A stretch of 64,000 nucleotides of DNA, taken from the NCBI RefSeq assembly GCF_003334305.1, contig NZ_QOWS01000014.1; one strand, written 5' to 3'. How positions within the stretch are numbered: position 1 is the first letter of the stretch; every line of letters starts with the position of its first letter. This document shows positions 36,853 to 42,000 of this stretch, one piece after another. The DNA comes from Escherichia coli (lineage in GTDB: Bacteria > Pseudomonadota > Gammaproteobacteria > Enterobacterales > Enterobacteriaceae). A program made the position numbers and the translations under genes. The notes beneath the pieces are model-generated. The model saw nothing but the letters and a program-made list of their open reading frames with translations, ran no database searches and was not told the origin of the DNA.

Positions 36853-37664
36853 CCGAATCAGTAGCCCGTTTGCGCGGCGAACAGTTAACCCTGGGATATG
36901 GCAAATATACCGTTGCGGAAAATCTGACTGTAGAAATTCCTGATGGTCACTTCACGGCAATTATCGGACCAAATGGCTGTGGTAAATCCACGTTACTGCG
37001 TACCTTAAGCCGCCTGATGACGCCTGCTCACGGGCATGTCTGGCTGGATGGCGAGCACATTCAACATTACGCCAGTAAAGAAGTTGCACGCCGGATTGGT
37101 CTGTTGGCGCAAAATGCTACCACGCCGGGCGATATCACCGTGCAGGAGCTGGTGGCGCGTGGACGTTATCCGCATCAACCGCTGTTTACCCGCTGGCGCA
37201 AAGAGGATGAAGAAGCGGTAACGAAAGCGATGCAGGCCACGGGAATAACTCATCTGGCAGATCAAAGCGTGGATACCCTTTCTGGCGGACAACGCCAGCG
37301 AGCGTGGATCGCGATGGTGCTGGCCCAGGAAACGGCAATTATGCTGCTCGACGAACCCACGACCTGGCTGGATATCAGTCATCAGATTGATCTACTGGAA
37401 CTGTTAAGCGAACTGAACCGCGAGAAAGGCTATACCCTGGCGGCGGTGCTGCACGATCTTAATCAGGCCTGTCGTTACGCCAGCCATTTGATTGCATTGC
37501 GGGAAGGGAAAATTGTTGCTCAGGGAGCGCCGAAGGAGATTGTCACTGCTGAACTGATTGAGCGCATTTATGGTCTGCGATGCATGATCATTGACGATCC
37601 GGTAGCCGGAACGCCGCTTGTGGTGCCGCTCGGACGAACGGCACCTTCAACCGCAAATAGTTAA
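36849..37664 (+). CDS. fepC: ferric enterobactin ABC transporter ATPase FepC
   Basis: ORF 36708..37664; start trimmed to ATG at 36849 overlapping the fepG stop (MTESVARLRGEQLTLGYG, 271 aa); Walker A GPNGCGKST. Confidence 0.92.
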   Translation: MTESVARLRGEQLTLGYGKYTVAENLTVEIPDGHFTAIIGPNGCGKSTLLRTLSRLMTPAHGHVWLDGEHIQHYASKEVARRIGLLAQNATTPGDITVQELVARGRYPHQPLFTRWRKEDEEAVTKAMQATGITHLADQSVDTLSGGQRQRAWIAMVLAQETAIMLLDEPTTWLDISHQIDLLELLSELNREKGYTLAAVLHDLNQACRYASHLIALREGKIVAQGAPKEIVTAELIERIYGLRCMIIDDPVAGTPLVVPLGRTAPSTANS

Positions 37665-38794
37665 ACTAAGTGGTCTGCCATCATGGCATCCTGTTTTCTG
37701 GATGCCATCGCATAGCGCAATAACACGCTACCACAAGCCACCATCCCGCCGATCAGCGCGGAAAGGATCACAATAATCGCCTTACCCGGACCGTCTTTTT
37801 TCACTGGCAATGACGGGCTTAACTGATATTTAAACGGCGTAAAATTCACATCGTTGATATTTGCTTTTGTTAACTGCTCAACAAGATACTGACGATTACG
37901 TAATTCACCGTTCAGTTCCGCAACGTCAGTGACCGCTTTTTCAATTTCCAGTTTGCGTTCAATACCGTCTGCGCCGAGAGAAATAGAGAAATCGGGGTCA
38001 TCTTTAACGGCCTGACCATTACTGTATACGGGCTTTTTAATTCCCGCCGCGTTGGCAATGTCGAGTGAATAATTGAGGCGCTGAATGTTTGCATCAAGTT
38101 GATTTTTCGTTTTAATGCGATCCTGAGCCAGTTTTTCTTTTTCAAACTGGGTTTTGATCTCCAGTTTATTACGGACGTTTTCTATCGACTCTTTCACCAC
38201 CAACGCAGAGATATAATCGATATACCCGCTCAAAACGGTCTGCGCCTCTTTACTGGTTGGCGCGGTAAAACTTAGCGTCCAGGAGGTATACAGTGACGGT
38301 TCATCTTTTTTCTTACTGGCATTGTCATCAACCGCTTTCATTTTTTCGCTCAATGCAACAATAGCGCGATGCAAATCCAGTTCATCGATTTTCGCCTCTT
38401 TTAATTGGTCCATCACATAAGGTGATGAACGCAGGTACTCTTCCAGCAAGCTAACAGACTGAAACTTCTTGATAAACAGGTTAAATGCACCGCCACGGTC
38501 GATATTAACATCGAGATCAAGAACGCGGAGTTTGGTAAAGGTTTTCTCCAGGTCCTGCCACTGAATGGCTTCGGCGGGAGTAATAACGGCTGAGCTGGTC
38601 CATTTTTGCGGCAGGATGAAAGAGATCAGTAAACCTGCGCAGGCAAATGCAAAAACGACCGCCATGACCGTTTTTTTGGCCCGCCATAAAACTTCGATTA
38701 GATTAAGTAAATCAATTTCATTATTACTGGGCGACGCCAGAGGATACTCAGAAAAATGAGCGTCACTTCCCTGTTTAATATTCAATGATGACAT
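37661..38794 (-). CDS. fepE: polysaccharide co-polymerase (Wzz-like) FepE
   Basis: 377-aa ORF MSSLNIKQGSDAHFSEYPLASPSNNEIDLL; 3' end overlaps the convergent fepC by 4 bp. Confidence 0.9.
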   Translation of the reverse strand: MSSLNIKQGSDAHFSEYPLASPSNNEIDLLNLIEVLWRAKKTVMAVVFAFACAGLLISFILPQKWTSSAVITPAEAIQWQDLEKTFTKLRVLDLDVNIDRGGAFNLFIKKFQSVSLLEEYLRSSPYVMDQLKEAKIDELDLHRAIVALSEKMKAVDDNASKKKDEPSLYTSWTLSFTAPTSKEAQTVLSGYIDYISALVVKESIENVRNKLEIKTQFEKEKLAQDRIKTKNQLDANIQRLNYSLDIANAAGIKKPVYSNGQAVKDDPDFSISLGADGIERKLEIEKAVTDVAELNGELRNRQYLVEQLTKANINDVNFTPFKYQLSPSLPVKKDGPGKAIIVILSALIGGMVACGSVLLRYAMASRKQDAMMADHLV

Positions 38795-38960
38795 GGGGTA
38801 TAACCTGAAAATGAGTCCAATAGGGGAAAATCTCCACGGCGCTCACTTTACCAGTTGGTGAGAATTATCCGAAGCTGAAGTTTGTAAATTCCTTCCACTG
38901 AATGCAACATTCACTCTATTTAAGAGAAATAACTAGCAAACTTATAAACTAAATAAATGA

Positions 38961-38994
38961 TTAACCCATAATTATTTCCTATAATTATGGGTTA
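38961..38994. promoter_or_regulatory. perfect 14-bp-arm AT-rich palindrome between entF and fepE (entF terminator hairpin and/or fepE operator)
   Basis: ttaacccataatta-tttcc-taattatgggttaa located 16-50 bp downstream of the entF stop. Confidence 0.45.
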
Positions 38995-39009
38995 ATAGAT
39001 AATGTTAAT

Positions 39010-42000
39010 TTACCTGTTTAGCGTTGCGCGAATAATCGGCCCAATTTTTTCAAACGCCCCTGGAGAGATAATATCCACATGCGCACAATCCTGACGATAG
39101 ATATCCAGCTCCGCAATCCACGGCGACCAGGCGCGTTCGGGGCTCATACCTTCCTGAAGCGTGCGTTCAGCAACAAACAGCGTCGCTTTACCATCAAACG
39201 GTACGCTATGAGCAGTCGTCAGCAGGCGCACAGCATCAGCGTAGTTGCCTTCAATGGTGGTAAACAACTCCGTTGAAGTACTTCCCTGCTGTGCAGCCAG
39301 GAAGGCCTCGCGCTCGCGGTTAATCTCCGCCAGCACTTCCGGGTCCAGACCATTAGCTTCTTTTTCCTGCCAGTTTTGCGTTTCTGGCGGCCAGGTATCC
39401 AGCAAGCCAAGAAATGCCACCTGTTCGCCACGGGCACGCAGTCGCGCCGCAATACCCTGCACCAGCGTACCGCCAAGGGAATACCCCAGCAGGTAATAAG
39501 GGCCGTGCGGTTGTTGCTCAAGTAACGTTGCCAGATGCGCTTCGCAGACTTCATCCAGGTTTGTCGCTGTCTGCATGGGTCCATGAGGGCGCGGCGACTG
39601 AATGCCAATAATCGACCATTGTGGATCGAGATAACGCGAGAGCACGCTAAACTGCCAGGCAAAACCGGATGCCGGATGGAAACAAAACAGCGTCGGGCCA
39701 TTACCTTCACGCAACGGCAGAATGGTTTCGAATCCCATGCGCCGGGAGCTGTCCTCTTCACCATCAATAATCGTTGCCAGTTTGGCGACGGTTGACGCGA
39801 CCATCACCTGCCCCGGCGTCACCTGACGAGCAAACTGTCGACTTAACTGCGCTGCCAGTTTCATTGCCAGTAGCGAATGACCGCCCAGCGCAAAGAAATC
39901 AGCATCGGCATCCTGCACGTCACAACCCAGCAACGACGCGAATGCCGCGGCGATAATCTTTTCACTGCCCGCTTTCGGTGCACGTCCCGACGCTTGTGTC
40001 TTCAGTTCAGGCAACGGTAAGGCTTTGCGATCCAGCTTGCCGTTGGCGCTAAGAGGTAACTGTGGAAGTTGCAGCAGAACCACCGGCACCATATGCGGCG
40101 GCAATGTTTCGCGAAGCTGTGCCTGTAATGCGCTGGTATCCAACGGCAGACCTGATTGCGACACCAGATAGCCCACCAACTGACGCGCATCACCACCGGT
40201 GGCTGCCGCCAGGTTAATCACACAGGCGTGGGTAACGGCTTGTTTGACATCCGGCAGCGCCTGCATCACGCGATCGATTTCGCCCAGTTCGATACGCTGC
40301 CCGCGAATTTTTAGCTGATCGTCACTGCGCCCGAGGTACTCCACCGCGCCGTTATCCAGCCAGCGGGCGACGTCTCCGGTACGATACATCCGTTCACCTG
40401 GGGCAAAAGGATCGGCAATAAAACGGCTGGCGGTCAGATCGGGTCGTCCAAGATACCCCTGCGCCAGTTGGATGCCGGTGAGATAGAGATCACCCGCCAC
40501 ACCCGGCGGCACCGGATGCATCATCGCATCAAGAATACGCAGACCCGTATTCCATACCGGATAACCAATCGGCACACTGCTGCCGCGCACCTGTGCCAGT
40601 TCCTCGCCAAAAGCCGGATACCAGCTGACATCTACCGCCGCTTCCGTCGGGCCATACAGGTTATGCAACGGCGCGCCGGTTAACTGTTGCCATTCGCGGC
40701 ATAAATCAGCCGGTAAGGCCTCACCACTACAGAAAACCTGTTTCAACGTCGCGCAATTCTGGCGAGCGGTTTGCGGCGTCAGCGATGCAACAAATGCCGC
40801 CAGCATCGACGGCACAAAGTGCGTGGTCGTTACGCCATATTCGGCAAAGAATTGCTGCATAGCGAGCGGGTCACGGTGCGCTTCCGGTTCAGCCATCACC
40901 AGTTTTGCCCCTGCGATAAACGGCCAGAAAAACTCCCACACCGAGACATCAAAACTGCACGGCGTTTTTTGGGCAACGACATCTTCGCCTGTAAGCGGGT
41001 AGTGATTTTGCATCCATAACAGGCGGTTAACGATAGCCGTCTGCCCGACCATTACACCTTTCGGCCTGCCGGTGGAGCCAGAGGTAAAGATGATATAAGC
41101 CGTGTGGTGCGGTTGTGAAAGTTGCAGCGGCGCACTGCCCTGGGGGGTAAGCGGGGCGTTATAGCAAAGGCTTGTTAAATTGGGAACATCGCTAAAGCGC
41201 GGCAGTTGATCGTCGGTGGTAATTAACAGCGACGGACGCGCATCTTCCAGCATCATTTTCAGGCGATCGTCCGGATAGCCGGTATCCAGCGGTAGCCAGG
41301 CCGCGCCAGCTTCAACTATTGCATGGAGTGCCAGGGTCAAAAAGACCGAGCGCGGTAGTGCCACCGCCACGCTGTCCCCTGGTTTAACGCCGCGCTCACG
41401 CAGCAGATTCGCCAGCGCCACCACCTGCTCGCGCATTTCCCGATAGCTGAACAGGTAACGCGCATCTGCCAGCGCCGGAGCATCCGGTGTTTTTGCCGCT
41501 TGTTCTGCCACCAGCGCGCTCAGCGTGGTTTCTGGAATCTCAACCTGAGTGGCGTTGATCTGCGCCAGCTGCGCATACTCACCTGGCAGCATAATATCGA
41601 CATCGCCGCACAACAGCGCCGGATCCGCGGCGAACTGGGCAATCAGCATTTTCAGGCGTTCAGCATGCTGGATTAACGTTGGCTCATCGTAACGCTGTTT
41701 ATTGGCGAGGATCTCAATACTCAAATCACCGTGTTCATCCGGGAACAGGGCCAGTTCAAGGTCATTAACCGGACCGGTTGCCAGGGTATGGGTTTGCGTC
41801 TGAACACCAGGAATATCCAGTTGGTAATCAAATACCTTGATATTGAGTACCGGACCGAACAGCGGTTCCTCTCCTGCCGCTCGCCCGCTGTCACGGACAA
41901 TTTGTTCGGCATCGTAACGTTGATGACGACGCATTTTTTTCAGTTGTGCTGCCAGTCGGGTTGCCAGTTCCGGCAGCGTTTCTTGCGCCGCAATGTGAAT

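Follow-up and report, generated by a model that had tools for sequence, protein, structure and literature searches.

Within the window (the whole 64-kb stretch of Escherichia coli DNA analysed here), the genes entF and wzz(fepE), the latter coding for the O-antigen very-long-chain length regulator, lie in tandem on the minus strand and are separated by a 215-nt spacer. A 601-nt query (positions 38600–39200) is 100% identical to an E. coli ST2350 record, and the RefSeq annotation of that record gives both genes in this orientation. EntF ends in ...RATLNR* with a TAA stop codon at 39010..39012, and the fepE coding sequence occupies 37661..38794, with its ATG at 38794. The spacer contains an exact inverted repeat at 38960..38996, in which two 16-nt arms (ATTAACCCATAATTAT and ATAATTATGGGTTAAT) with 100% complementarity flank a 5-nt loop; it begins 13 nt past the entF TAA, and 165 nt separate its other end from the fepE ATG. 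A preliminary description of this DNA had reported a perfect palindrome with 14-nt arms at 38961–38994. The exactness of the repeat and its placing between the entF stop and the fepE start are confirmed here, and its dimensions are corrected, as the true arms are 16 nt long and the string first given was two bases short.

No other perfect hairpin-type repeat in the 64-kb window is as long, and just five such repeats there have arms of at least 10 nt. When the 215-nt spacer was shuffled 20,000 times by mononucleotides, arms never exceeded 14 nt, and 16-nt arms have an analytic expectation of about 1e-5 in the AT-rich core.

On the minus strand RNA the repeat forms a stem of 16 perfect pairs, AU-rich and with only three G-C pairs, in which the 5′ arm corresponds to 38996–38981, the loop (AGGAA) to 38980–38976, and the 3′ arm to 38975–38960. 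The hairpin has a predicted folding energy of about -17 kcal/mol (-17.1 to -17.6); the value of -17.6 is that in a 69-nt context (z = -4.7), and an 86-nt context folds at -22 kcal/mol (z = -3.9). A U-rich tail (CAUUUAUUUAGUUUA, 38945..38959) follows on the same strand, with 6 U among its first 10 nt. The segment immediately 3′ of the stem (CAUUUAUUUA) has C and A as its first two bases, such that the U-tract is interrupted. Terminator prediction by a simple consensus scan calls this hairpin on the minus strand, in line with the initial suggestion that it might terminate entF transcription.

Three other identities for the palindrome or its spacer were considered and rejected: an interspersed repeat (REP/BIME, ERIC, or MITE) or regulon motif is ruled out by the single locus per genome in 5426 E. 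coli genomes, a sigma-70 promoter-like TTAACA-16-AATTAT over the 5′ arm is a chance match (3 found against 2.7 expected), and none of the small ORFs in the spacer overlaps the hairpin meaningfully.

Covariation of the hairpin across genera

A scan for relatives of FepE yielded 75 loci, and entF lies directly upstream in 25 of them. A hairpin of at least 11 pairs, positioned 1 to 41 nt past the entF stop codon and followed by a T-rich tail, is present in 21 of these 25 spacers, which come from Escherichia, Salmonella, Citrobacter, and Intestinirhabdus; eight further E. coli alleles likewise have a hairpin of at least 11 pairs and a T-rich tail in the same place. Outside these 21 are one Citrobacter locus and three Pseudocitrobacter loci. 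The exception C. sp. MGH106 has its hairpin 48 nt past the stop codon, with just 3 T in the tail. The Pseudocitrobacter loci (L024, L025, and L075) have an insert of ~1.58 kb between entF and fepE, and a different, GC-rich hairpin (CCCTCCC-TTTC-GGGGGAGGG) directly past the entF stop.

The stem sequences differ among the orthologous hairpins. When 20 hairpins are aligned, pairing at the 16 positions of the hairpin found in the window holds in 90.5% of cells, compared with 37–52% when the 3′ partner is slid by 1–3 columns, and seven of the stem pairs have changed on both sides. The covariation score of the alignment is 0.364, against 0.162 ± 0.018 for shuffled alignments, and 0.364 is reached by none of 500 shuffles. 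In 8 of the 20 sequences there are U-G or G-U pairs, which fall at two positions of the stem, and hairpins of the Citrobacter freundii group have 2–5 G-U pairs, with folding energies of -14.5 to -19.8 kcal/mol in the sense orientation versus -5 to -14 in antisense. The loop varies from 3 to 11 nt, and the T-tract is asymmetric, being conserved on one side of the hairpin only. The covariation, the G-U wobbles seen in the sense orientation only, and the variable loop together argue that selection acts on a helix in the entF sense RNA accompanied by a U-tract, and not on a DNA palindrome.

Probable termination downstream of entF and the expression of fepE

These features, together with published expression data, make it very probable that the palindrome is the stem-loop of an ordinary Rho-independent (intrinsic) terminator of the Fur-regulated fes-ybdZ-entF transcript. 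The terminator reading offered in the preliminary description therefore gains support from the position of the hairpin, its sense-strand fold, its U-rich tail, the cross-genus covariation with G-U wobbles, and the reported uncoupling of entF and fepE expression. Structure, position, conservation, and covariation come from the sequences compared here, whereas the uncoupling is drawn from the literature on another strain; termination at the window allele, and its efficiency, is what we infer from the two.

The expression data are most detailed for strain CFT073, in which RNA-seq fold changes (fur mutant over wild type) are 388 for fes, 158 for ybdZ, and 294 for entF but 4.92 for fepE; the sole Fur ChIP peak of the operon is the one given for fes/fepA, and no separate fepE peak is listed (PMC7157518 Table S1). 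These data indicate a strong but leaky block between entF and fepE in CFT073, whose allele differs from that of the window, and termination is taken to be incomplete because fepE still responds 4.9-fold to the fur deletion. In an ExPEC strain in serum, fes, ybdZ, and entF are induced and fepE responds separately (PMC4145685). The iron-regulon response of MG1655 includes a 13.7-fold increase for entF, and fepE is not among the up-regulated genes in the retrieved passages of that study (PMC6049941). Uncoupling of this kind could include differences in RNA processing or decay too. Neither entF nor fepE is present in the 3′-end tables of Adams et al. 2021, and text searches (terminator, SEnd-seq, RIL-seq) returned no 3′-end mapping of the site.

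A plausible course of events would begin at the Fur-regulated fes promoter, from which transcription would proceed through ybdZ and entF. The nascent minus-strand RNA would fold into the 16-bp hairpin 13 nt past the entF stop codon, and the U-rich segment (CAUUUAUUUA) would then leave a weak RNA:DNA hybrid from which most polymerases would be released before reaching fepE. The minority reading through could account for the weak Fur dependence of fepE, and the hairpin would probably also protect the 3′ end of the entF mRNA. Expression of fepE would come mainly from its own H-NS/RcsB-controlled promoter ~120 nt further downstream, with the palindrome insulating that promoter from upstream transcription. 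If the terminator reading is true, a sharp 3′ end is predicted 5–10 nt past 38960, within CAUUUAUUU.

Papers using the RegulonDB-derived operon name fes-ybdZ-entF-fepE treat fepE as co-transcribed with the upstream genes. For annotation, two transcription units, fes-ybdZ-entF and fepE, with a leaky terminator between them are a better description than a simple four-gene operon; such a terminator explains why the response of fepE to loss of Fur is ~60 times below that of entF. A Fur-box-like stretch also lies over the entF stop codon (38998–39014, GATAATGTTAATTTACC, also given as GATAATGTTAAT), with ~11 of 19 matches to GATAATGATAATCATTATC when counted by eye, and resembles a half box. It is probably not significant, since no separate Fur ChIP peak is listed for fepE in CFT073.

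The fepE promoter region and other roles considered for the palindrome

The spacer downstream of the palindrome contains an RcsB-type pseudopalindromic box (TCGGATAATTCTCA, 38859..38872, minus strand; consensus TN(G/A)GA-N4-TC(T/C)NA) located 78 nt upstream of the fepE ATG. Of the 25 orthologous spacers, 22 have a box fitting this consensus 72 to 79 nt ahead of the fepE ATG, and one more has it 145 nt ahead. Among the elements of the spacer, this box is the one that truly resembles an operator. Behind it lies a putative extended -10 element of the fepE promoter (TGGTAAAGT, 38845..38853, minus strand), which conforms to a TGnTA(A/G)A(A/C/G)T motif conserved after the RcsB box in the orthologous spacers. 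In Salmonella, RcsB binds TCGGATAATTCTGA, a site beginning 79 nt before the fepE ATG and covering -36 to -22 relative to the mapped transcription start (PMC7913699). The fepE start in the window is predicted at ~38836–38837, as the homologous Salmonella start lies 36 nt past the start of the RcsB box. Pescaretti is said to have described, in 2011, that PmrA controls wzzfepE in Salmonella. PmrA is reported not to induce wzzfepE in E. coli K-12 (PMC8129183).

A homologue of a known H-NS site (TTTGCTAGTTATT, 38928..38940, minus strand) lies ~20 nt downstream of the hairpin, inside a 24%-GC segment (38900–38999), and is one mismatch from the DNase I footprint TTTGCTGGTTATT mapped in EHEC EDL933 (PMC8669466). 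In that study H-NS was found to bind a fepE promoter fragment, with its footprint at TTTGCTGGTTATT, and fepE was up 3.3-fold in an hns mutant (PMC8669466). The fepE gene (37661–38794) has 37–50% GC in 100-nt windows versus 54–60% for entF (39010–39800), consistent with its being an H-NS target. The earlier proposal that fepE might be controlled independently of the upstream Fur promoter is thus upheld by the H-NS site, the RcsB box, and the gene's own promoter, although not by way of the palindrome, as these elements lie 20–140 nt downstream of it.

The very AT-rich palindrome and its TpA-rich ATAATTAT motifs might, besides terminating transcription, help to nucleate or extend a fepE-repressing H-NS filament. 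The 24% GC at 38900–38999, the adjacent footprint, the higher fepE expression in the hns mutant, and the lower GC of fepE relative to entF would all fit, but we consider this additional role unlikely. The major mapped H-NS footprint is outside the palindrome, and a conserved, co-varying stem is neither needed for H-NS binding nor explained by it; moreover, the hairpin is GC-rich in C. amalonaticus and in Pseudocitrobacter, showing that AT-richness of the stem is not conserved.

The terminator reading also bears on a published deletion. In EDL933, a 40-nt deletion designated 'delta fepE-bs' raises fepE expression 2.1-fold (PMC8669466). According to the published primers, the 40 nt removed are GGTTTATCATTTATTTAATTTATAAGTTTGCTGGTTATTT, whose homologue in the window is 38928–38975; besides the 13-nt H-NS footprint, the deletion takes out the base of the stem on its 3′ side and the U tail. 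Interpretation as deletion of an H-NS binding site is confounded, because the 3′ stem base and U tail are also lost, and the 2.1-fold rise in fepE may partly reflect loss of the terminator and read-through from entF. The primers in PMC8669466 have AACCCC where the 5′ arm of O157 genome Z1768 (L003) has AAACCC.

A role chiefly in RNA stability or processing, with the hairpin acting as a 3′ exonuclease shield for the entF mRNA or as part of a 3′-end-derived small RNA, is quite unlikely. A stable 3′ hairpin just past the entF stop codon would serve in this way, and Hfq binds long U tails such as those of the K-12 and CFT073 alleles; terminator hairpins generally act as stabilisers too. Against this as the main role, a 3′ end must first be produced for such an element to act on, and a conserved U-tract right next to the stem is what marks termination itself. 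A scan of 37500–39500 against Rfam 15 at E up to 10 gave chance-level matches only, with none over 38940–39010, and a literature search turned up no link between entF and a small RNA.

The preliminary description had also entertained an operator for a dimeric regulator that might control fepE independently of Fur. That a dimeric transcription factor acts in this way on the two 16-bp (or 14-bp) half-sites is extremely improbable. The palindrome is indeed perfect, AT-rich, intergenic, and upstream of fepE, and all 20 aligned hairpins share its core (CCATAAT/ATTATGG) unchanged, but operator function by a protein dimer is disfavoured because conserved half-sites with fixed spacing would be expected. 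The half-sites are not conserved outside Escherichia, where compensatory and G-U changes keep the pairing and destroy the DNA symmetry; Citrobacter and several Escherichia alleles do not keep the DNA palindrome intact, the distance between the arms is as variable as the loop, and the T-tract is retained on one side. The centre of the palindrome is ~140 nt upstream of the predicted fepE start, and the motif is single-copy in each genome. Within the window, other half-site copies amount to two matches with 2 mismatches, which is chance level (at least 4 matches in 3 of 100 shuffles).

DNA pull-down, one of the checks proposed in the preliminary description, has in effect been published for an O157 fragment carrying the hairpin, though not the window allele: this fragment is 427 bp long and runs from 59 nt before the entF stop codon to +153 of fepE (PMC8669466). 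The proteins recovered were EF-Tu, PDH (pyruvate dehydrogenase), MalP, S1, GroEL, CbpA, Dps, H-NS, and Ivy (PMC8669466 Table S2), that is, the nucleoid proteins H-NS, CbpA, and Dps together with abundant contaminants, and no dedicated regulator.

Alleles within E. coli and relation to known elements

The hairpin core is present in nearly all E. coli genomes and varies at its edges. Searches of 5426 complete E. coli genomes with 73-nt and 41-nt queries show the locus to be single-copy, with a median of one place per genome; a palindromic query matches both strands, so two reported 'places' correspond to one site. The exact window allele, with its perfect 16-bp form, is found in 228 of the 5426 genomes (4%), and about 10% of complete genomes have no match to the 73-nt segment of the window. 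The perfect palindrome is a minority lineage allele rather than the conserved state, which also counts against its being an operator. Positions 38940–39012, containing the terminator and tail, vary more within E. coli than any other part of the locus, with 83.6% identity to K-12 over these 73 nt versus 94.7% over the 601 nt around them; the 115 nt of spacer nearest the promoter hardly vary within the species.

The K-12 allele, AAACCCATAATTA-CAGAAAA-TAATTATGGGTTT, has a 13-bp stem followed by the tail TTTATTTGTTT (also given as UUUUUUAUUU and UUUUUUAUUUGUUU; a U6 tail), and this hairpin with its tail has the textbook form of an intrinsic terminator. The corresponding sequence in O157 and B2 strains, ATAAACCC...GGGTTTAT, runs into CATTT(A/G)TTT, an interrupted tail. 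BL21 shares with the window the form ATTAACCC...GGGTTAAT, which differs from O157 by a compensatory flip of an A-U pair to U-A, and a further C-to-T change in the window allele shortens the 7-nt loop to 5 nt. This flip and the loop-closing C-to-T change in the window lineage account for the perfect 16-bp symmetry, which is an accident of the lineage allele, not a conserved property. Strain 94EC has the 5′ change alone, and its stem is shorter. A U-G wobble is present in the stems of CUVET20-416, 98222, Escherichia sp. MOD1, and E. albertii alleles.

Relative to K-12, the window allele has a longer and more stable stem (-17.1 versus -12.9 kcal/mol) and a weaker proximal U-tract (6 versus 8 U among 10 nt). 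The interrupted proximal U-tract may make termination less efficient than in K-12 or CFT073, and the window element is probably a partial terminator.

A second, strongly divergent spacer haplotype occurs in CFT073 (L091:5268–5513) and CH4811 (L005), is 246 nt long rather than 215, and is barely alignable with the window outside the hairpin, the RcsB box, and the ribosome-binding region. The CFT073 spacer nevertheless contains an orthologous hairpin, AAAACCATAATC-CGACTAAAT-GATTATGGTTTT, followed by TTTATTC (the U-tail is also given as U7). Strain 510016 (L090) carries an IS1 insertion following ...TATTAACCCATAATTA, at the apical end of the hairpin's 5′ arm (~window 38978), which splits the terminator and parts entF from fepE.

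It is a speculative and rather unlikely extension of these comparisons that allelic variation in the terminator tunes the leak of Fur-driven transcription into fepE. The alleles behind this idea are the U6 tail of K-12, the interrupted tail of O157 and B2 strains, the flipped pair with interrupted tail of the window and BL21, the divergent CFT073-type spacer, and IS1 insertions. If it were true, E. coli lineages would differ in how the production of very long O-antigen chains is coupled to iron starvation.

Compared with known systems, the palindrome shares with intrinsic terminators of the Enterobacteriaceae a stem-loop 3′ of the stop codon on the sense strand, compensatory changes in the stem, and in vivo uncoupling at the orthologous site. 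A U-rich tract of about 7–9 nt directly 3′ of the stem, as such terminators have, is fully present in K-12, in CFT073, and in most other genera; the window allele has its U-rich but interrupted segment there. It differs from the usual intrinsic terminators in its unusually long, AU-rich stem (16 bp, 3 G-C), the perfect symmetry of this allele, and its interrupted U-tract. With AT-rich regions silenced by H-NS it has in common a position within a 24%-GC tract beside the mapped EHEC footprint; however, that footprint adjoins the palindrome and is not on it, and H-NS leaves the covariation and the U-tract unexplained. The RcsB box and fepE promoter of Salmonella (PMC7913699) are closely matched in the window, with TCGGATAATTCTCA at 78 nt upstream of the ATG corresponding to TCGGATAATTCTGA at 79 nt. 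In contrast to the palindrome, the RcsB box is 14 bp long, lies 88 nt further downstream, and is conserved by sequence rather than by covariation.
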